The notes below the pieces were generated by a model. It saw only the letters and a program-made list of their open reading frames with translations, had not been told where the DNA came from and did no database searches. A program made the translations under genes and the position numbers. DNA of 63,999 bases, counting the filler, from Basidiobolus ranarum (taxonomy: Eukaryota): NCBI GenBank assembly GCA_040143965.1. It is 16 parts of 16 records of this genome, joined end to end, with 100 filler letters (N's around TTAATTAATTAA, not from the genome) between each part and the next. Parts side by side here need not be neighbours in the genome. Positions count along the whole stretch, not along the records: positions 8,055 to 11,978 come from JASJQH010002212.1; 15 more parts are not named here. The stretch is one strand, 5' to 3'. Shown here one piece after another: positions 6,673 through 62,302 of this stretch (position 1 is its first letter; each line of letters begins with the position of its first letter).

Positions 6673-7954
6673 TTACCTCTTAGCTGTGACACATCCTAGC
6701 CTTCTGCATTCTTCCTCAATATATTTCAAATCAGCAATAGTCCTCTCATATCTCAAAGAAGGCGCATGCCTTTCAACCCAAAACCTTTTGTCATGTTGTC
6801 TCCCAGGATGTGGCCCACTAAACCAAATGATGTTTGCTTCCAAATTGCAAAAGGCCTGGAGTTTACACAGTGAGCTTTGAACAAGCCAGAGTATAATAGT
6901 TTTAGTTGCTTTTAGGCTTGGTAATTCCCACAGGAAAGATGTCAAGAATACTATGAATACCAACCCTATTGGGAAATAATCCTGGATTTGGAAGGAACTC
7001 AGAGTCGCTGAATCTTTTGTTTTTGATACCCTCAACATCATTCATCACTGAAGCTAGATAATTCTCACTTATTTGAAGCCTTGTATGAAAGCTTTGCCCA
7101 CTTTTACTATCATTAACTCTAACAGAAAAAAAATCAATTTGATTCAGATCAGATCCACCCTTCTGGATCACAAAACCATCAGAGAAATGTTGCAAAATTA
7201 GTGGCTCACTCCATATTTGAGAACTGTTATCACAAACTGCTTGAGAAGTCTTTGACAGCCATGATAAGATGTATTGGGTGGTGTAACAGCAAGCAACTTG
7301 CGAACAGCCTGTTTGGCCAAGGCAATCCTAACTGACAAGTGTTTCTTCACATCAATGCCAGTTTGAGTAAGTGGAAAGCTTACATATGTTGCATCATTCA
7401 TATGAAGAAGCTGAGTATCATACACGGAAATGGTGCAACCAATTGGAATTGTTTTGGCAATTGAAAGCTCAAAGTTATTTTCTGAAAGGTATCTCTGAAT
7501 AGTAGCAGTATCTAGCTGAGGCTGAGAAGTAGAAACTCTGATATCATTGGCAAACAAAGTAAGCAGGGATCCAGGGGACAGCTGAGCAAACTCATTGAGA
7601 AATAACACAAAAAGCAGAGGACCTAGCACTGAACCTTACACCACACCATTGGGCACTGGGTATAGACAGGAAGTGAATCCAGGATGGAGGATTCTGGCTT
7701 TACTGTCAATAAAGAGGGCTCTCACTAGCATAGTGAAGAACTGGGAAGTTAAAGACTGAAGCTTTATCCACAGCAGATCTCTGTCTACTGAGTCAAAGGC
7801 TTTGGTGATATTAAAAAGAATGGCAGCCTGTGGATATTGCAAAGCATTGTCATGACTGAGTACCACAGCCATATCCAAGGAGAGCTTAGGAAGGAAGCCA
7901 AATTGACTAGTGTGAAAGCCTGGAAGACTCTCATGAATGATTTCACCATGAGGA
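6673..7954 (-). mobile_element. Degenerate non-LTR (LINE) retrotransposon reverse transcriptase region
   Basis: RT motifs FNITKAFDSVDRDLLW, GVV*GSVLGPLLF and LFANDI (FADD-like), broken by stops and frameshifts. Confidence 0.88.
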
Positions 7955-8054: not shown

Positions 8055-8152
8055 ACTGGAACTACAAGGTCAATGGGGAAGGAGGTCCTTATATCACCAC
8101 TTACGTCACATTCAACACTGGTGAAGGAGTATCATTCATCTGGTATGAGTAG
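8055..8152 (+). CDS. Secreted CHAP-domain protein, copy 1 (3' end only, cut by contig start)
   Basis: WNYKVNGEGGPYITTYVTFNTGEGVSFIWYE*, the same protein sequence as the end of 9092-9631. Confidence 0.88.
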
Positions 8153-9091
8153 ATACCACTCCTGACTTTAGATACCCGCAATATAGCAGGCCACCAGCTA
8201 TCTTTCATTGCTTATTCCCTCTATGTATTCCTACTATAGAACAATTAGAATGTATTGATTACAAAATAAATATACCATTAATGAATTATTTACCACGTTG
8301 GATATTTATTTGCGAAACCTTAGTCTTGTAGGAGTAAAAATAACAGTGCGGCTATTGCTCGGATAAACCTAATACCGTCGAAATATCATTTACTGGATAG
8401 GTCAATTTTTAAATCGATGTTGCATGGTCATAGTTGATATTTCGCATATTTCTGAATATAAAAATACTACATAAATGGTGCTCTTAATAATGAGTATTAG
8501 CAATGAATTAACAATTAAGATCTTATGAACCTGAGATGTATGTAGAAGCGTGTGAGTATGTTGTTTTTACAAATCAATAAAAAGATATTTACGCTTTTAC
8601 AGTAATGTGTCACATTGTATTTTTGTTAACTATGCTTAAGTTCAAGAGCCAATCAATAATATTTCAACTTGATTCTAGTGTATATTAAAAAAAACCTCCG
8701 CATGCTTGTTTGCTTTAATATGATATAGATTTCATCTCAGCTCCAAGTAGGGAGTAAAATCTATGAACCGATCTAGACTGTTCTGAGCTGAATATTTACC
8801 AGTCACAGGATGGAGATTCACTAATATGGTATAGTTGTTCTGATATTCAATCTTGACTCAAAATCATGTTCAGACCGGCCTTACCATGTTTAATATATTC
8901 CCATATATGGCATGGACGATCGGGAACTGAAAATAATTGGATTGAAAATTTAGTTCGGGAGGATTCATTTTGATCGGGATCCGTAAATCATTGGATAGAT
9001 ACTTGCTAGATAGAGGGATTGTTTAGATATAAAGACTGAACTCATGCCACTAATAAACTCACAATCAACTACACTACAAAACAAAATTAAG

Positions 9092-9631
9092 ATGGTCAAA
9101 ATCACCTCTGGTCTATCTTACATTTGCCTTACCGCCACTGCTCTCTTGAGTTTAGCGGTGCAAGCTCTTCCAGCTCCAAGTGATACCTCTGTCACTCAGC
9201 AATTCAACCACACCGAGGTATTAACCGAGAAGAGCATACTCGGCGATATCACCAACTTTGACTCGTGCTCTCTCCAATTTCGTTTTGACAATGGCCAGTG
9301 TACTGACTGGGCCGATGCTCGCTACTACCAACTCACCTGTCAACACACCCAGTGGTGGGGTAACGCTCTCACATGGCCCAATAGCGCGGAGAACACTCAA
9401 GGCTGGGTGGTGTCTGATCAACCCCGAGTTCCTTCCATCATTGCCATCCAGCCAGGATATCAGGGGTGTGACTCATATGGCCATGTTGCTGTAGTCGAAA
9501 GCATCAATGATGACGGAAGTGTATATACGAGTAACTGGAACTACAAGGTCAATGGAGAAGGAGGTCCTTATATCACCACTTACGTCACATTCAACACTGG
9601 TGAAGGAGTGTCATTCATCTGGTATGAATAG
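9092..9631 (+). CDS. Secreted CHAP-domain (Cys/His-dependent amidohydrolase/peptidase) protein, copy 2, intronless, 179 aa
   Basis: Signal peptide MVKITSGLSYICLTATALLSLAVQA. CHAP motifs GQCTDW, WGNAxxW and GHVAVVE. TATAAA about 65 bp upstream. Confidence 0.9.
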   Translation: MVKITSGLSYICLTATALLSLAVQALPAPSDTSVTQQFNHTEVLTEKSILGDITNFDSCSLQFRFDNGQCTDWADARYYQLTCQHTQWWGNALTWPNSAENTQGWVVSDQPRVPSIIAIQPGYQGCDSYGHVAVVESINDDGSVYTSNWNYKVNGEGGPYITTYVTFNTGEGVSFIWYE

Positions 9632-11657
9632 ATAATTCTCCAGACTATAGATACCTATGATAGATAAGATAAATGATCAGTTAATGATACCACCTCGGCC
9701 TATAGATACCCACTTGATGTTTAATCATCTACTATCTTATATTGTTTATTCCCTTTTTGTACTCTCACTATAAGGCAATTAGAATATATTGTATGAAATA
9801 TTTACTACGTTATATGTTTATCTCTAAACTTTAGCCTAGTATTCGTAGCAAGCTTATTTCTTCGATACTTCTAGAACGGTACTAGATAATATGTATACTA
9901 TGCTCATAGCGAAAAGACTATTTATATGCAATAAAAGAGTCCTATTTGAATAGTGTCTTTATAAATTGTGTAGATGAGTTTCCACTTTGTATGAAGCAAC
10001 TTATCCATTTGGTAATTTTCCCATAATCAATGAAGTGAAATCAAGTGTTTTACAGTGATATATAGTAGCAACATTCATTCTTTCAAAGACAAAAGCTTCG
10101 AATGGTAGAATTTCTGTACGAGTAGACCAATCACTCTCCATGCTTATAAGCCTCTGTTCTCCTGTACTGATTTTAAGATCCGAAGATGTTGTGAACTTGA
10201 AGTACGAACAGGCCTAGATCGCTCTGAGCTGAATATTTCCCAGTCATACTGGAGAGAATGAACCACTATATGTGGTATATTTTTTCCAATGTTCAACATA
10301 CTATTTTGGTGAGTACCTGAGCAACTTGTTTAAAAGGATCTAACATTATTTTTAGACTGGCTTTACCATATTTAATCCTAATCCCAAATGTGGCACTGAT
10401 GATCGGGAACTGATATTCATTGGATTAGTATTTCCAGAATAGAAATATCAGGAATTATAAATACTAACCTCACAATCAATTACACTATTGATTACTAAAT
10501 AAATATATCATCGATGAAATATCTACCACGTTCTGCTTGATTTTTTAATCCGGTAGAAGTAAAAGGGATTGTAGCTATTTTTCCTGAATAAATCAGATAG
10601 GTTGGGAACATCACTGGATAGTTTGTATCATAATAACGGCTAAAGGAAATTCTAAGTCTACTTATCAGTGCTGATATACTCCCTCGTCGATAAGATCTTA
10701 TCGCAGAGATTGGCTGTACTAACTATTTGCTCCTTATTCGTGATCACTTAATATTAGCGAGTAAATATTGTCCGTAATAATAATTCGTCGTAATTTTGTT
10801 AGATACTACTTCTCCAATACTATGTGACATAGAAATAACCCGTAGATTCTTGAGCAATTGAACCCTCTACTTACTACTGGTTTTCTGAGTGGAGAGAACC
10901 CTTTTCGGCTCCACTGCAACTCCAGTTAGCAACTAGGATAGCTTTAACAAGGCATTTAAAATGTACCTTTACTCCAGAAAATCCTGAAATAGATATGAAA
11001 TCGTGAAATATGTGCCCTTTACAAATCAGGGAGGAATTCTCTACGTGGTTTACTGTATTAAGTCACATTGGTAATCTCTTGGATTGTCTTTTCAACTACG
11101 AAAATTAAGTACTCTATTCTAACTTCGGGAGCCAACCAATAGCTTGCTAGATTATTCTGGTTTTATATTAAGAAGATTCCCATGTGCTGGTTCCTACATA
11201 TTATAGAGTTCTCCCCAACTCAAAGTGCCGAGTAAAATCTAATCGGAACCGATCTGGACTGTTCCGAGTTGCTCACTTCTTGTGCTGAGAAGAATGAACC
11301 ACTATCTATAGTATAGTTGTTCTGATGTTCAATCTTCGAAATTCGTTTATATTAGGCTACCCGACTTATTTAACAAAGACCCAGAAATATGATTAGACTC
11401 TGGGTTTACCATATCTAATGTTAATCCCAAATCTAGAAAGGATGATCGGGAACCGATATTCATTGGATTAGTATTCCTAGAACAGAGATATCATGAATTG
11501 TAAATACTGAACTCACAATCAATTACAGATTGGCTTTGATCGGGATCCGTAAATCATTGGATAGACATTTGCTAGACGAAGTGATTATTAAGATATAAAG
11601 ACTGAACTCATATCACCATTAAACTCACAATCAATCACACTGTAATACAAAATCAAA

Positions 11658-11978
11658 ATGGTCAAAATCTCATCTGGTCTATCTTACATTTGCCTTACCG
11701 CCACTGTTTTCTTGAGTTTGGCGGTACATGCTCTTCCAGCTCCAAGTGATACCTCTGTCAATCACCAATTCAACCACACCGAGGTATTAGCCGAGAAAAG
11801 CATACTCGGCGATATCACCAACTTTGACTCGTGCTCTCTCCAATTTCGCTTTGACAATGGCCAGTGTACTGACTGGGCCGATGCTCGCTACTACCAACTC
11901 ACCTGCCAACACACTCAGTGGTGGGGTAACGCTCTCACATGGCCCAATAGCGCGGAGAACACTCAAGGCTGGGTGGTG
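11658..11978 (+). CDS. Secreted CHAP-domain protein, copy 3 (5' part, cut by contig end)
   Basis: Near-identical to copy 2. Amino-acid differences lie only in the signal/pro region. Confidence 0.9.
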
Positions 11979-30172: not shown

Positions 30173-30702
30173 ATGGTTAAATTCACCTCAATTCTTTCCT
30201 GCGCTATCCTTGGAGTGATCACCTTGATTCCAACGTTCGAAGCCTTCCGGTATCAACCAAAGAGACTGGTAAAGCTGCACAACATTCCCAGGTCAATCAA
30301 GTGAAGAGTAAGTTGGGAAGTATTACAAACTTTGCTTCGTGCTCACTAGATCATCGCTACAATAATGGTGAATGCACCGATTGAGCTGATGCTCGCTATT
30401 ACCAACTCTCCTGCCACCATACTTCTTGGATGGGTGATGCTCGTACCTGGGCCAGCAGTGCCCGAGGTGCTAGTGGCTGGATAGTTTCCAGTCAACCACG
30501 AGTTCCCTCCATCATTGTGATTCAACTCGGGTATCAAGGTTGTGGGGCCACTGGACATGTTGGTGTTGTTGAGCGAATCAACAGTGATGGCAGTGTATAC
30601 ACAAGCAATTGGAACTACGAGTTCAATGGTAAAGGAGGACTATACACCACATCCTACGGCAACTTCAACACTGGCAGTGGAGTTTCATTCATCTGGTATT
30701 AG
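30173..30702 (+). pseudogene. Divergent secreted CHAP-domain paralog, pseudogene
   Basis: MVKFTS... start, frameshift near 30225, GECTD*ADARYYQL with TGA at 30382-30384, intact GHVGVVE...GVSFIWY*. Confidence 0.88.
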
Positions 30703-42526: not shown

Positions 42527-42921
42527 GTGAATAGCCCAACATTTCATCAATTTTGACTGCATTTGGTATATTTTTGATTTATGTTAGTATGGAAGTTGAT
42601 ATAAATATTTAGGACAAGGTTGTTTATGTACCGTGGATGAAGCAACAAACAGTCATGATTGGCTACCAGCTTGTAATTTTTGGTCTGAGATCAAGGCAAT
42701 AAATTACCAAGAACGTGGTTTGTCGCTTTCTCTTTCCTCAATCCACATCCGAAGAGAGGTCCACGACGATACTTCAACATTTGGTGAGTTTAATATACTA
42801 TTACAATCAGCAGTTATACTAGCAAATAGCTTAAACTAGTATCTATATTTTTTGAAGTTTCCATCCATCCACTTATTAATCAGTAACTCATAAATCATAT
42901 TTAGTGGTAAATATAAAGGAC

Positions 42922-43641
42922 ATGTCTCACAAGCCTAGAAACTCTTTCATCGCCCCAGGCATCACCCGCCTCTCTCGTTCTAGCGTTTTTGCCAAGCGTG
43001 CTCTTTACAAGAAGCAAAAGGTTGCTGCTGCCAAGCCTGAGGCTTCCGCTCAATCCACCAAGACTGTTCAAGTTAACGGTGACAAAAATGGAAAAGAACG
43101 TATTGTTGCCTTGAACAAGGCCTCTCGTTGGTATCCTGCTGAAGATGTTGCTCAACCCAAAGCTTCCCGTAAAACTGCCAAGCCTACCAAGATTCGTGCC
43201 TCTATCACCCCTGGTACTGTCCTCGTTCTCTTGGCTGGTCGTTTCCGTGGCAAGAGAGTCGTTTTCTTGAAGCAACTCGCTTCTGGTTTATTATTGGTTA
43301 CTGGTCCCTACAAGGTTAACGGTGTTCCCCTCAGACGTGTCAACCAAGCATATGTTATTGCCACCTCTACCAAGGTTGACCTTTCCAGTGTTAAGGTTGA
43401 TGATAAGTTTGATGATGCTTACTTCAAGAAGGAGAAGACTGCCAAGTCTACCAAGACTGAAGAAGAGTTCTTCGATGAGAAGCAAACCAAGAAGACTGTC
43501 TCTGAGACTCGTTCTGCTGACCAAAAGGTTGTTGATAAGGAGATCTTAGCCGCTGTTGCTCAAGTTCCTCATCTTCGCACATACTTGAACGCTTCCTTCA
43601 CTCTTCGTAAGGGTCAAGCTCCTCATGCCATGAAATTTTAA
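42922..43641 (+). CDS. RPL6: 60S ribosomal protein L6 (eL6), probable 5'UTR intron 42784-42904
   Basis: RASITPGTVLVLLAGRFRGKRVVFLKQL, GVPLRRVNQAYVIATS and strong codon bias. GTGAGT...TAG lies upstream of the ATG. Confidence 0.97.
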   Translation: MSHKPRNSFIAPGITRLSRSSVFAKRALYKKQKVAAAKPEASAQSTKTVQVNGDKNGKERIVALNKASRWYPAEDVAQPKASRKTAKPTKIRASITPGTVLVLLAGRFRGKRVVFLKQLASGLLLVTGPYKVNGVPLRRVNQAYVIATSTKVDLSSVKVDDKFDDAYFKKEKTAKSTKTEEEFFDEKQTKKTVSETRSADQKVVDKEILAAVAQVPHLRTYLNASFTLRKGQAPHAMKF

Positions 43642-50813: not shown

Positions 50814-52000
50814 CTAATACTGAATATATTGAACTTTTTGCGATAGTTGTTGAGGTTCATTTAACAAATAAACAAGCTCACGTGTTTCAACAGAATCCAA
50901 TAGACGAACTGTAAGTTTTCTAGCATCTCCAGTGCCTAATGCCTATATAAAAGGAACATAAATATATTAATCAGCATGCTATTGGTCCATATCATTAGCA
51001 AATCACGAACCTTGACTAATGGAAATAGCTTGGACCCGATCTCTTGCTTTCTTTCAGTCTCAGGCTTGGCATTTAAGATTGTCACTTGTTTCTCTGCTTC
51101 AGGGCTGAGGGGGAATTTTTGAACGAGAGATGCATTGGCAGAATGAGATTGAGTCTCTATTATCCCAAGAGCTTTCTTAGCTTCGTGAACCCGATTTACC
51201 AAATAATCTGGGTTCTGAAGAAGCTGAGCCCGTTCCGCTCTAGTTAAACCAAGGAGTAGTTCCGTAATATCAGCCGATCGTTCTTTTTGAATACCGGAGA
51301 TTAGTTCATTAAGCTGCTGCCTCTCTACCTCAGGGCTAAGAGCTTGTGTAGGCTCATCAAAGTCATTACTTCCTAATGATGCCCGTATCTCCAAAGCCTA
51401 TTAACGTCAAGTTAGAACATGAAGGTGATAGAACGTTCAAATGATAATTTTACCTTTTCTTCAAGAGCATTGGGGAATGAGAGAAGTAAAATAATATCAT
51501 TGACTTTCATTTTTAGTATTGCTTGATTGATTTTTCCAATTTCATTTTCTGATATAGATGCCATGTTACGAAGCTGGGAAGTAAGTCTAGTTCCCAATAT
51601 TTCGTTTCTCGTCTGGGTGGTAAAGGAGGCCAATAAAGCAGGATTCAAAATGAGACCATTATCACCACTGAATCCTCCATTACTTTCATCAATCCTACCA
51701 GAAGTAGATGAGGCAGTACCAAATGTAGCAGTAATTCTAGCTTCACGAATCTGCTTAGGCTCAGCTATACAAACTATGATAGGTTTTGATCGAATGATCC
51801 GTCCATTCATTTCGACTAACGCTTTAGCAGCATCTTCGATATTTCGGAAACTACCGAAACCAAAGCTTTTGGATTTCAAAGTGCTCTCGTTCATCATAAC
51901 ACGGGCACTATTAATATGCCCAAGGTGACGGAACTCGTAGAAAAGATCAGAGCTCATGATAGACGAATCAAGATTTTTGATATACAGATTGGATAGATAT
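50814..52000 (-). CDS. Rrm4-like RNA-binding protein fragment: one RRM plus three MLLE/PABC-like segments; 5' end disrupted or missing
   Basis: NLYIKNLD...KSFGFGSF RRM. The spliced C-terminus reads ERKQEIGSKLFPLVKALGTGDARKLTVRLLDSVETRELVYLLN. Confidence 0.75.
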
Positions 52001-54902: not shown

Positions 54903-56012
54903 TTGGCTAAACCAGTAAGTCCAGACAACTTTGCAGATATGCTGCTAGATTTTGACCTTTGTTATTCCAGTACTGATGGTAGTAAATCAGAAGTTGAAGA
55001 AGAAGACAATGGTTTTGTTATGGACTCTTTGTTATTGGCAAGCATTAGTCTACTCATAACACTTACAGTAAAGGAAGCAGCTTTGATTATTGAGGAGTGG
55101 AGAGTTCAATCCAATCTTAGCAACCAGGTGTTTATTGGTTTTCTTACACTTTTACCACAGTTGATTGGCAACTGTTGCTTGCCACAGACCTGGTACAAGT
55201 GGAAAACACTTGTCAATTGTATGACTTATAATCCTTCAGTAATTAAACTACCTTCATGTCCAAATGGTTGTTTGGCTTTCACTGGTGATCTGAAAAACCT
55301 GAAGTCATGTACTGTTTGCACACAATTGGCAATCACTGAATCAGGTAAATATTGTTCATATTTGGCTTACATACCATTGATTCCCCATCTTAAAGTTTTG
55401 ATGAAATCACCCAAATATAGATCATTGATCCAATACCAAAGTACTCACCATAAAGCTGATGGTATTACCAATATACTTGATAGATATCACTACCAGAATC
55501 TGAAAAGTCAAGGTTTCTTTCAGAACATGCGTTATCATGAATTTGCATTGGCTCTGGATGGTTTCTCACTAAACCAATATACCATTGGAAAGGCTTGCTG
55601 GCCAATACTTTTAATTAACTTAAATCTTCCTCCTTCTGAATGGTATAACCGTCATAATATTTTGATACTGTGCATCATATCTCAACCTAAATCACCAATG
55701 CCTTTAGATAGCATCTTGGAGCCTTTGATTGTGGAATTTGAATGTTTATATGATGGGATTCAGATGGGTGAATATTTTATTAAAGCTAATATCATTGTGT
55801 GTATTGGTGACTCTCCTGCCATCAGTAAACTTGGAGGTTTTTGCAGAAACAATGCATTATCATGCTGTAGATTTTGTCAAATCAATGGAGTCTACTCTAT
55901 CAGGCATTTGCATTACTACTATCCAAATACAAAACTAAACTCCATGACTTTGCTGTCAAGAGCCCAGTCAGATTTTGACATGATCACTGATATCAATTCA
56001 TCAAATAGTTAG
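54903..56012 (+). mobile_element. CACTA/EnSpm (Tnp2, Transposase_21-like) transposase, truncated
   Basis: CPNGCLAF..CTVC, YIPLIPHL, LDGF, WPILLINLNLPP, DSPAISKLGG and CRFC. Confidence 0.85.
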
Positions 56013-60243: not shown

Positions 60244-62302
60244 TACTTATTGCTACCAATTAAGCCCTCGCGTAATTTTTCCGTCAACAGGTGACTCTTT
60301 AATCCACTTATAAACTCCAGTTTCTCATCAACAGTTCCGTCCTTATTCTCTGACACCTGAGGAATGGGGTCAATTGATGTGGGCTTGGTGTTCGAAACGT
60401 ATTTTACTTGGTTTGCGGGTACATCACTTTCTTCGGTAGAGTTCATATTCGGTAGAAATAATTTCTTTCCTGGTGCTCTCTTTAGTCCATGCTTCACCCA
60501 ATATTCCTCCGATAATTTTCTAACCTGATCACATTGTTTGAAGCGAGTATGGTTTATCATATTCTCGAGGTGTGTGGATATTATAGTGCCTAGGTAGGCG
60601 CAAGCCGTACGAGCCTGATATGTAACTGGATGTGCCTCGAAGTGATGGCTGTGAAAATTTTGAATAACGAAGCAATACGTAAGATAAATTTGTGGACTAT
60701 GAAAACAGAGTACTCAATGTATATCGATGGACCACTTACCAACAGATTAGCCCCCATAACACACCATAGACTACAACACCAATACTCATGCTAGATTCGA
60801 CACCCATGTTTTTCAAATATATTAAATGAATAGGGCTCATTGCTCTCAAATGACAGTACGTCATATCAACAGGCTTACCATACGGAACTGGAAATGAATT
60901 AGCAGATTTAGAGGGTTTCGTTAGGTAGTTTGGGTGAGCAGGAAAAGGTGGTTGGAAAGGATGCACAGAGATACCATCAGATACGCCTCTAGTAGCGTGA
61001 GAACCAACTGGACCAGTGCGTAATTTGGCTTTATCCCGCATGTTCAGAGTATCGTTTGAAGTTGGCGAGCGGTCAGCCTGGAGAATTTGTGCAGTAGGTG
61101 CGCTTCTATCAACAAGATATCGGGATTTGTTGAGAAGATAAAGCTCTCTGAATTCAATTTAACAAGAGGTATCGTTAAGAATCTGGGTTGCAATAACCGA
61201 ACTGAGGTCATCAATTTATGAAACATTTACCGGGCTTGCTTTGGTATATCGGAGGCAGGAAAATGAATACCTAGATATCTTTCAACATCGGAATCTTCGT
61301 CTATTTCTTCAGCTACAATTCGTTATAAGTCAAATATAAAATCAGTAAATATTCATCACAAGATTTGGCTTTCCGTGCCTCGTTTCAAGGAGGTAAAGAA
61401 CACTCATATTATCACATAGACTCACGAAGTACAGAATGTACTTGTCAATAAAAAAGGCTTACCAATTACAACCCCGTGCCAGTCCTCGTCAAACTGATAC
61501 ATCATGACTCTATCATAACCTGTTACAGTTTTAATATATTTGACAGCTAGTGTGCACAACTCTTGGGTGTCCTTGGCTGACTCAAAGGAATGGACCAGAG
61601 AATTCATTGAAAAGAAATACTTGTCATACGCTTGATGAGAGAGAGTATTGTATTCTTCAAATTCGAGTACAATCAGATTAGGATTTCTGGTAGTCTTATG
61701 CAAGCTGCAATAGAAAGAAATCTCAAATTCAGCAGTATCATCATCTGAGCTTTCATATTCATGGTAAGTGCGACTTTGGCTTGAAGTGGAAGACTTTGAA
61801 AGAGCTAAAGGTGGAACAGGTTGGTTTTTTGAAGCAGTTGACAGAAATTTTGTAAGAATATCATGGTCATACCATATGGCGGCGGCGAATGACTATAATG
61901 GCATTGTAGCGCATCTTGATATTTTGAAGACTTCCAAAATAGAGTGGTATCTATTTGAATGACAAAACCTTCAGCACCAGTTTTAGAGGCGTCTCGAAGG
62001 GAATCAAGACGTCGCCGAAAGTTGTCACGCTGAGAGTCAGCGAGTAGCTTATTAAAGCTTCGTAATTCAAAAAAATCTTGTGGGTTTATGTGAGGGATTC
62101 CAAAGTAAGTTGGTAAATTATCACTCATATACTCGATGCGAAGGGTACTAGCCGAAATTACCATTAGCGCCCCGTGTGACTGAATTGCTCCAGGAACATG
62201 GATGGGTTCTTTTTCGCAAGGTATGAAATCATCATTATGTTTAAAATAGAATTCACTATCAACAACAGTTACAAGATCTTCTGGAAATATTTGTTTCGCC
62301 AT
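60244..62302 (-). CDS. Phytochrome photosensory module (PAS-GAF, running toward PHY), at least 4 introns, 3' truncated
   Basis: PCEKEPIHVPGAIQSHG, TGYDRVMMYQFDEDWHG, YLGIHFPASDIPKQARELY, LRAMSPIHLIYLKNMGV and LWGLICCHH after splicing. Confidence 0.95.

Follow-up and report, generated by a model that had tools for sequence, protein, structure and literature searches.

A tandem array of intronless CHAP-domain hydrolase genes of probable bacterial origin in the fungus Basidiobolus ranarum

Bacterial wall-degrading enzymes – among them the GH25 muramidases of fungi and other organisms and the Dae amidases of ticks – have been domesticated by eukaryotes as secreted antibacterials, and the folds of these two types and the bonds they cleave differ from those of CHAP enzymes. 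CHAP domains are overwhelmingly bacterial and phage-borne, and fungi have no peptidoglycan of their own. Here, we describe a tandem array of CHAP-domain genes at positions 8055–11978 of a 63,999-nt stretch of DNA from Basidiobolus ranarum (assembly GCA_040143965.1), the whole of which is referred to below as the window. The closest described systems are found in two other eukaryotes. In Trichomonas vaginalis, laterally acquired and multiplied NlpC/P60 peptidoglycan hydrolases are reported to target bacteria (PMC6299479, PMC10461829). In Saprolegnia parasitica, seven secreted CHAP genes, which their authors called unexpected, are presumed to be of bacterial origin and to have been duplicated repeatedly (PMC3681718).

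Tabima et al. 2020 (PMC7466969) report 2–5% of Basidiobolus genes as candidates for horizontal gene transfer (HGT), with a list of 806 candidates, and stress secondary metabolism; the main text of that paper has no occurrence of CHAP, peptidoglycan, C51, amidase, Chloroflexi or Ktedonobacter. Two studies of Basidiobolus in herptile guts (PMC10964425, PMC12400927) invoke specialised metabolites to explain how the fungus structures gut bacteria through functions gained by HGT, and neither has an occurrence of CHAP, peptidoglycan or lysozyme. The relevant part of a survey of family expansions in early-diverging fungi makes no mention of the CHAP domain and speaks of peptidoglycan only for GH24 lysozymes, and a literature query pairing CHAP or C51 with entomophthoralean names gave no occurrence of CHAP among the matches listed. 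In the literature searched, we found no horizontally acquired wall hydrolase of CHAP type in fungi. Domestication of a bacterial wall hydrolase by a eukaryote is known; what is new is the CHAP type of enzyme, not yet described in fungi.

The interpretation that we favour, with a probability of about 0.7, is that the locus is a tandem birth-and-death array of intronless, secreted CHAP cysteine hydrolases, acquired from bacteria and probably cutting bacterial walls. The window consists of about 16 contigs of 3.9–4.0 kb each, linked by N44-TTAATTAATTAA-N44 spacers, and positions 8055–11978 are exactly one 3.9-kb contig. The initial annotation had read this segment as three co-oriented CHAP copies with the contig both starting and ending inside a copy, and this is what we find: a partial copy A, a complete copy B and a partial copy C all lie on the + strand, together with a fourth unit that lacks a coding sequence (CDS). 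Copy B (9092..9631, with its stop codon at 9629–9631) is an intronless CDS of 179 amino acids (aa) that matches PF05257 and aligns over its full length to Basidiobolus proteins of 179–181 aa. An ATG at 9044 extends the open reading frame (ORF) of B but is not conserved in C, and homologs begin at the MVK encoded from 9092, so 9092 was taken as the start.

The protein encoded by copy B comprises a putative signal peptide at about residues 1–25 (9092–9166), a linker at residues 26–60 and a CHAP domain at residues 61–179. A bacterial-type CHAP domain had been proposed for it together with a HMMER comparison to PF05257 (CHAP; MEROPS C51), and that comparison gives 60.8 bits (E 1.9e-16) against a cut-off of 26, covering profile positions 7–79 of 81. 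In an AlphaFold2 model built from an alignment of 81 rows, the predicted local distance difference test score (pLDDT) is 91–98 for residues 61–179 and 48–67 for residues 1–60. Foldseek comparison of the model to the PDB gives 18 matches at E <= 0.001 and places B in the papain-like alpha+beta CHAP fold; the best matches are CHAP-domain proteins, mostly peptidoglycan hydrolases, and include the Staphylococcus aureus amidase 5t1q, the phage phi812 hub and Andhra tail lysins, LysGH15, LysK, PcsB and PlyPy. TM-scores normalised to the target reach 0.69 (2lrj) and 0.53 (9eum). There are five PDB sequence matches, and most of these also are bacterial or phage cell-wall hydrolases. The domain assignment is thus borne out by profile, PDB alignment and fold alike.

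The residues expected of a cysteine hydrolase are in place. Cys70, His131, Ser147 and Asn150 are invariant in all 81 aligned fungal and bacterial rows. The codon of the catalytic Cys70 (TGT, 9299..9301, +) lies at the N-terminus of helix 70–82 of the model, and the residue aligns to the Cys of 2k3a, 5t1q and 9eum; that of the catalytic His131 (CAT, 9482..9484, +) lies at the start of strand 131–138, and its GHVA motif aligns to those of solved CHAPs. The segment Asn148-Trp149-Asn150 (9533..9541, +) was located by PDB alignments to the same three structures, in which HMMER places the S-N-W-N of B opposite S-E-x-N, in agreement with an earlier remark that Asn stands where Glu is usual. Across the 81 rows, the residues seen at position 148 are N, D, A, G, S and H; none of the rows has Glu there. 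An adaptation of the fungus was considered as the source of Asn148 and is ruled out, because the bacterial relatives also lack Glu at this position. The Glu of S-E-x-N is a feature of staphylococcal and phage CHAPs, and the definition of the CHAP family rests on Cys and His; the missing Glu lowers similarity to LysK-type enzymes, not membership of the family. Nor does it imply loss of activity, since Cys-His-Asn is the arrangement found in papain. From its sequence and modelled fold, B would be an amidase or endopeptidase acting on peptidoglycan.

The N-terminal part of B would direct the protein out of the cell. Residues 1–25 look like a eukaryotic signal peptide by eye, in which a basic start is followed by a hydrophobic core and, ahead of L-P, by a small-x-small or A-x-A-type context. 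A signal peptide, the catalytic Cys and the catalytic His had been attributed to each copy; this holds for B, whereas the truncated copy C shows the signal peptide and the Cys and the truncated copy A shows neither. A short pro-like region had also been described, for which we find no support in this copy: residues 26–60 form a disordered linker of low model confidence, with an N-H-T (N-x-T) glycosylation sequon, and by inspection B has no dibasic processing site.

Three further cysteines – C59, C83 and C126 – mark the subclade to which the gene belongs. They are jointly present in 13 of the 13 aligned short-form Basidiobolus rows (165–219 aa); outside the short forms we saw only C126 in one B. 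ranarum protein and a Cys at the C59 position in a few non-fungal rows. In a quick tree the Basidiobolus proteins fall into two subclades, with the array gene among the short forms. The second subclade has the bacterial Gly and Ala/Val/Thr at the extra-Cys positions, and its members have long N-rich linkers or a six-Cys N-terminal module. This module (in P0016, P0017, P0019 and P0027) is about 55 aa long, with six invariant cysteines, a G-N-G-L-Y-C-G motif and an Asn-rich linker to the CHAP domain. It matches no Pfam family, its sole PDB sequence match is meaningless (E 0.065), and it may be a binding module. The sequences indicate that the three cysteines and the N-glycosylation sequon are fungal additions. 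A short form from B. ranarum, P0007, has a Ser/Thr-rich C-terminal stalk and a hydrophobic tail that by eye resembles a glycosylphosphatidylinositol (GPI) signal, which suggests a cell-surface version of the enzyme.

The copies on the contig are close repeats of one another. By self-blastn, B matches C at 92.6% identity along 444 nt, a length that takes in 123 nt of 5′ flank, and matches A at 93.4% along 122 nt, a degree of repetition far beyond chance. Copy A (8055..8152, +), inside which the contig starts, consists of the final 32 codons of a CHAP gene and its TAG stop, in frame from 8057 (8057–8152); it differs from the C-terminus of B by three synonymous and no non-synonymous changes (tblastn 100% identity over 31 aa). 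Copy C (11658..11978, +) comprises the first 107 codons, through signal peptide, linker and CHAP domain past Cys70, before the contig ends. It is 93.5% identical to B at the amino acid level, with all seven non-synonymous differences within residues 1–45; in residues 46–107 there are none, alongside four synonymous ones. Within the CHAP domain, A, B and C thus differ by seven synonymous and no non-synonymous changes, and the domain is therefore under purifying selection or being homogenised.

The long non-coding spacers and upstream TATA boxes reported for this contig are likewise present. Spacer 1 (8153..9091, +; 939 nt, 32.6% GC) holds the 3′ flank of A, with AATAAA at 8265, and the 5′ flank of B, which is conserved with that of C and has a TATA box at 9028–9033. 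Spacer 2 (9632..11657, +; 2026 nt, 34.2% GC) holds the 3′ flank of B, the CDS-less remnant and the 5′ flank of C, with a TATA box at 11594–11599. In B as in C, the start codon follows the TATA box at a distance of 64 nt. Neither spacer contains an ORF of >=60 aa, GC content is 33–34% as against 48.7% in the CDS, and gene density is one 540-nt CDS per 1.5–2.6 kb. In the 5′ flank of C, positions 11490–11640 seemingly carry two promoter-core and leader motifs (a TA-rich box, then a ...CTCACAATCAAT... leader), where B has one.

The fourth unit (10214..10532, +), recognised by self-blastn, is a promoter/leader-like piece (10214–10484) fused to a 3′-flank-like piece (10486–10532). In the first piece, 10352–10484 matches 11393–11527 at 85% and 10342–10426 matches 8860–8943 at 79%; the second matches 8253–8299 at 87%. 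The arrangement is what a deletion of about 640 nt that took out the entire CDS would leave. A CHAP paralog of another subgroup lies at 30173..30702 (+) and, by three-frame translation, is broken as assembled: the frame changes near 30241, past the signal peptide, and where CTDW has its Trp there is an in-frame TGA (30382–30384). It scores 43.8 bits to PF05257, has a TATA box 59 nt before its ATG and reads QLG where its relatives have QPG; the extra Cys residues said to be kept in it are there, all three. The lesions mean either a pseudogene or an error of assembly; the paralog, being on a separate contig in the window, is not physically linked to the array. Since it is 80–89% identical to members of the same subgroup in both B. 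ranarum and Basidiobolus meristosporus, the subgroups predate the species. The CDS-less unit on the array contig and the broken paralog on another contig attest to turnover.

Amplification of the family, which had been proposed from the array, is also evident in deposited genomes. A word-index protein search returned 40 hits, the best 29 of which are annotated proteins of B. meristosporus CBS 931.73 and B. ranarum (52–74% identity); one further weak hit brings Basidiobolus to 30 of the 40, on contigs of up to 204 kb. A second protein search added four Basidiobolus proteins, one of them on a 268-kb contig. Distinct paralogs number at least 19 in B. meristosporus; B. ranarum has at least 15, and there consecutive locus tags (K7432_016307/016308 and 005503/005504) mark tandem pairs. 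These proteins are already deposited as hypothetical or as 'Peptidase C51 domain-containing'.

The nearest relatives outside fungi are bacterial, and they come from Chloroflexota. An exhaustive phmmer search of 1.84 billion representatives gave 950 hits at E <= 0.001; of these, 247 reach E <= 1e-10 and 12 reach E <= 1e-30. These top 12 are all of fungal type, seven of them tied to Basidiobolus; the hits below them mostly have a bacterial architecture, with a Pro/Gln-rich N-terminus, one transmembrane (TM) segment, a juxtamembrane motif and a C-terminal CHAP domain. In a scan of GTDB (one genome per species) with an alignment as query, 485 of 601 candidate stretches were confirmed, and the best 80 hits resolve to 67 loci, every one of them from Ktedonobacteria or from metagenome-assembled genomes labelled Chloroflexota/Chloroflexia, with 43–58% identity over about residues 64–178. 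The genera include Thermogemmatispora, Dictyobacter, Ktedonobacter, Tengunoibacter, Thermosporothrix and Ktedonospora. A resemblance to Ktedonobacteria that had earlier been suggested is thereby upheld. The scan patterns derive from an alignment rich in such sequences and are biased towards Ktedonobacteria, but the unbiased phmmer search points the same way. Querying bacterial genomes with the single protein confirmed none of 77 stretches as relatives, and the alignment query was needed; two Atlas searches gave generic bacterial CHAP clusters only and added nothing on taxonomy.

CHAP genes also occur as adjacent pairs in Ktedonobacteria (loci L026/L054, L052/L066, L070/L079 and L075/L083), and three Ktedonobacteria genomes have 4, 14 and 6 CHAP matches, some of them adjacent. 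Ktedonobacteria also hold a distant CHAP subtype of 680–890 aa with the motif T-Y-Q-N, which is the type used as outgroup below.

For phylogenetic analysis 10 short domains were left out and the remaining rows thinned by identity, the bacterial ones at 80% and then 62%, the eukaryotic ones at 88%. In a quick tree of 193 domains, 35 Basidiobolus-type rows lie on one side of a branch with a Shimodaira–Hasegawa-like approximate likelihood ratio test (SH-aLRT) value of 90, and the Basidiobolus rows together with P0170, P0180 and P0184 are separated from 155 bacterial rows with SH-aLRT 98. These three additional proteins look eukaryotic, with signal peptides and N/Q/P-rich repeats, and P0180 is 85% identical to Conidiobolus coronatus CONCODRAFT_2635 (P0186). 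An IQ-TREE analysis of 101 rows and 125 columns splits 33 eukaryotic from 68 bacterial rows at a single branch (ultrafast bootstrap, UFBoot, 97; SH-aLRT 92) and groups Basidiobolus as one clade (95/89), with a bootstrap that is not fully settled. The eukaryotic rows are only of Basidiobolus and Conidiobolus type, with no other eukaryote among the rows examined. The phylogenetic comparison that the claim of bacterial origin had called for is consistent with it: eukaryotic rows occupy one side of a single branch, and the other relatives seen look bacterial.

The direction of transfer, from bacterium to fungus, is read from the distribution of CHAP domains in bacteria and phages, not from the tree alone. 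NCBI places Basidiobolus and Conidiobolus in different phyla, and since the family is common to Basidiobolus species and probably to Conidiobolus, the transfer is old and not peculiar to this genome. We read the phylogeny as suggesting a single old acquisition, or one acquisition followed by a move from fungus to fungus.

Several observations weigh against the interpretation favoured here. The Glu of all aligned solved CHAP lysins is missing and the residue at position 148 varies, which may mean a different catalytic geometry. The signal peptide was assigned by eye, not by a predictor. The CDS of B has a GC content of 0.487 and a third-position GC content (GC3) of 0.517, higher than in all eight other Pfam-supported ORFs of the window (GC 0.38–0.46, GC3 0.32–0.45); the higher GC3 could be a residual foreign signal or the codon bias of a highly expressed gene. 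A comparison of CDS GC with the B. meristosporus gene mean was dropped, as the other ORFs of this genome are less GC-rich. The 3.9-kb contig has no flanking fungal gene and belongs to a fragmented assembly, and copy number and the lesions of the paralog could be effects of assembly. Finally, when the quick tree is rooted with the distant Ktedonobacteria CHAPs, 74 bacterial rows form a clade (SH-aLRT 89), with the fungal rows outside it and not nested; the root falls among long Conidiobolus-like rows with support of 58–65 and an outgroup branch of 2.5 changes per site. The donor is not placed inside the sampled crown Ktedonobacteria, and the tree settles neither the donor nor, strictly speaking, which way the transfer went.

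The main rival, which we regard as unlikely, accepts real secreted CHAP hydrolases and gives them a substrate other than bacterial peptidoglycan: proteins of the fungus's own wall, host or insect material, or gamma-glutamyl or spermidine-type conjugates of the kind cleaved by glutathionylspermidine (Gsp) amidase. Gsp and trypanothione amidases are also CHAP enzymes, with weaker Foldseek matches to B (E 0.02–0.1), the canonical Glu is absent and position 148 variable, and the diversification of the family into forms with N-rich linkers, a six-Cys module and a GPI-like tail could reflect new substrates. The 18 structural matches at E <= 0.001 are, however, CHAP proteins and for the most part bacterial or phage cell-wall hydrolases, as are most of the five PDB sequence matches, and the Asn148 state is common to extracytoplasmic, membrane-anchored relatives in bacteria that bear peptidoglycan. 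Because fungi lack this polymer themselves, because the domain is conserved in a family that is large and turning over, and because the fungus lives among dense bacteria, bacterial peptidoglycan is the substrate that we infer. From family and fold, the enzymes would then serve to kill or digest bacteria.

The remaining alternatives are minor. One holds that the array is largely decayed, or an artefact of assembly, with few or no functional copies. The unit without a CDS and the paralog with both a frame change and a stop fit such a view, as do contig ends that both fall inside copies, where an assembler would be expected to fail on repeats. It is nonetheless quite improbable: B is intact and full-length against its orthologs, the domain differences among A, B and C are exclusively synonymous, and promoter elements are conserved between B and C.

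An origin without transfer from bacterium to fungus – an ancient eukaryotic gene that was widely lost, or a move from a fungus into Ktedonobacteria – would accord with the outgroup-rooted quick tree, in which the bacterial rows are monophyletic and the eukaryotic rows basal and paraphyletic, and with the age implied by a family shared between two phyla. A long outgroup branch, low basal support and long Conidiobolus-like rows at the root are the signature of long-branch attraction, though. Moreover, CHAP domains are overwhelmingly bacterial and phage-borne, Ktedonobacteria genomes carry 4–14 CHAP matches of several subtypes, the outgroup type included, and the eukaryotic rows among those examined are confined to two fungal types. 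We hold such an origin to be highly improbable.

The ORFs on the other contigs of the window bear on the identity of the organism. They encode a ribosomal protein L6e (42904–43641, +), a poly(A)-binding-type protein with RRM and MLLE domains (50936–51957, -), a PAS_2 (phytochrome-type N-terminal) protein (61805–62302, -), a CAP-family protein and a Transposase_21 (tnp2 family) protein of 369 aa (54903–56012, +). ORFs at 7198–7878 (-) on the neighbouring contig look by eye like a mobile-element remnant, and 7198–7626 has no Pfam match. With the nearest proteins to B all from Basidiobolus, the placement of the array in a fungal genome stands, and the organism of the window is Basidiobolus or a very close relative. 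Bacterial contamination of the assembly, to which the bacterial nature of the family, the short contig with no unambiguously fungal gene and the raised GC3 might point, is very unlikely, because the nearest proteins (52–74% identity) belong to the annotations of two other Basidiobolus genomes, where their contigs are as long as 204 kb, and other contigs of the window carry eukaryotic genes, and against it also stand sparse genes with AT-rich, ORF-free spacers and a TATA box conserved at -64, a eukaryote-type signal peptide and N-x-T sequon in place of the bacterial TM anchor, and a best bacterial identity of 58%, over the domain alone.

If the array is indeed a birth-and-death family of acquired wall hydrolases, its history and action can be outlined as follows. 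The family would have passed from bacteria to an ancestor of Basidiobolus, probably so early that Conidiobolus has it too, and the donor's living relatives would be the filamentous soil Ktedonobacteria (Chloroflexota). In place of the bacterial membrane anchor, the fungal protein would have gained a signal peptide that is cleaved off and a short linker open to glycosylation, with a TATA promoter presumably driving each unit, and the short subclade that includes the array gene would have gained C59, C83 and C126. That the gene is established as a eukaryotic one, with its product marked for secretion, is seen in the TATA box at -64, the AT-rich spacers, the hydrophobic N-terminal signal as read by eye, and the homologs on fungal contigs of up to 204 kb and, in one case, 268 kb. 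Once secreted, the protein would attack an amide bond of a peptidoglycan stem or cross-bridge through Cys70, with His131 as the base, oriented by Asn148 and/or Asn150 in a papain-like Cys-His-Asn arrangement. The walls of neighbouring bacteria would thereby be cut, for competition, for feeding or for both.

A bolder version of this account is possible but doubtful. In it, a Chloroflexota-derived CHAP enzyme captured before the split of Basidiobolus and Conidiobolus would have radiated in Basidiobolus, with fast turnover, until each genome carried 15–20 or more enzymes, whether secreted, anchored to the wall or joined to a module. These, and not just the HGT-derived secondary metabolites proposed so far, would be a principal way in which the fungus lyses gut bacteria of amphibians and reptiles and shapes their communities; the cysteines, the glycosylation and the six-Cys module would adapt an autolysin-type domain to a stable lysin with new target ranges.

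A large, conserved family of secreted wall hydrolases would offer a direct enzymatic mechanism for the structuring of gut communities. Its closest kin belong to soil Ktedonobacteria rather than to the gut bacteria that are commonly invoked. Small, single-domain fungal enzymes with predicted disulfides could also be of practical interest as lysins. The type of enzyme, the size of the family, its affinity to Ktedonobacteria and its ecological setting together make the finding one of moderate interest.

The array can be set beside four groups of known systems. The CHAP proteins of Ktedonobacteria (for example P0040 of Tengunoibacter tsumagoiensis and the loci of Thermogemmatispora, Dictyobacter and Ktedonobacter) are the nearest non-fungal relatives, with 43–58% identity over a 115-aa domain; they share S-N/D-x-N instead of S-E-x-N and many flanking motifs, and are likewise multi-copy with adjacent pairs. 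They differ in being 250–400 aa long, with a Pro/Gln-rich N-terminus, one TM segment and a juxtamembrane motif, whereas the fungal proteins have a signal peptide and short linker, extra cysteines and an N-glycosylation sequon, and their genes a eukaryotic promoter and AT-rich spacers. The cytoplasmic N-terminal region, single TM segment and conserved juxtamembrane motif of the Ktedonobacteria type are absent from the fungal proteins, and only the catalytic domain is shared.

The staphylococcal and phage CHAP hydrolases (S. aureus SAOUHSC_02979, 5t1q; Staphylococcus saprophyticus, 2k3a; the phi812 hub, 9eum; LysK; LysGH15) have the same fold and the same Cys and His positions as B (Foldseek E 1.7e-7 to 1.9e-4; phmmer E 9.5e-11 to 1.2e-5). 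They are 18–32% identical to it, have Glu opposite Asn148, and act as bacterial autolysins or as lysins of phages, often in fusion with a wall-binding domain or a further catalytic one.

Among eukaryotes, the CHAP family of S. parasitica resembles ours in being secreted, duplicated and of presumed bacterial origin, but belongs to an oomycete rather than a fungus and has no named donor. T. vaginalis is likewise a eukaryote living among bacteria with an acquired and multiplied bacterial cysteine peptidoglycan hydrolase of papain-like type; its NlpC/P60 enzymes are of the same superfamily as CHAP but another family, the organism is a protist, and activity is reported to have been demonstrated there by experiment, whereas the Basidiobolus enzymes are known from sequence. 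With these, the fungal CHAP family joins a short list of wall-degrading enzymes domesticated by eukaryotes.

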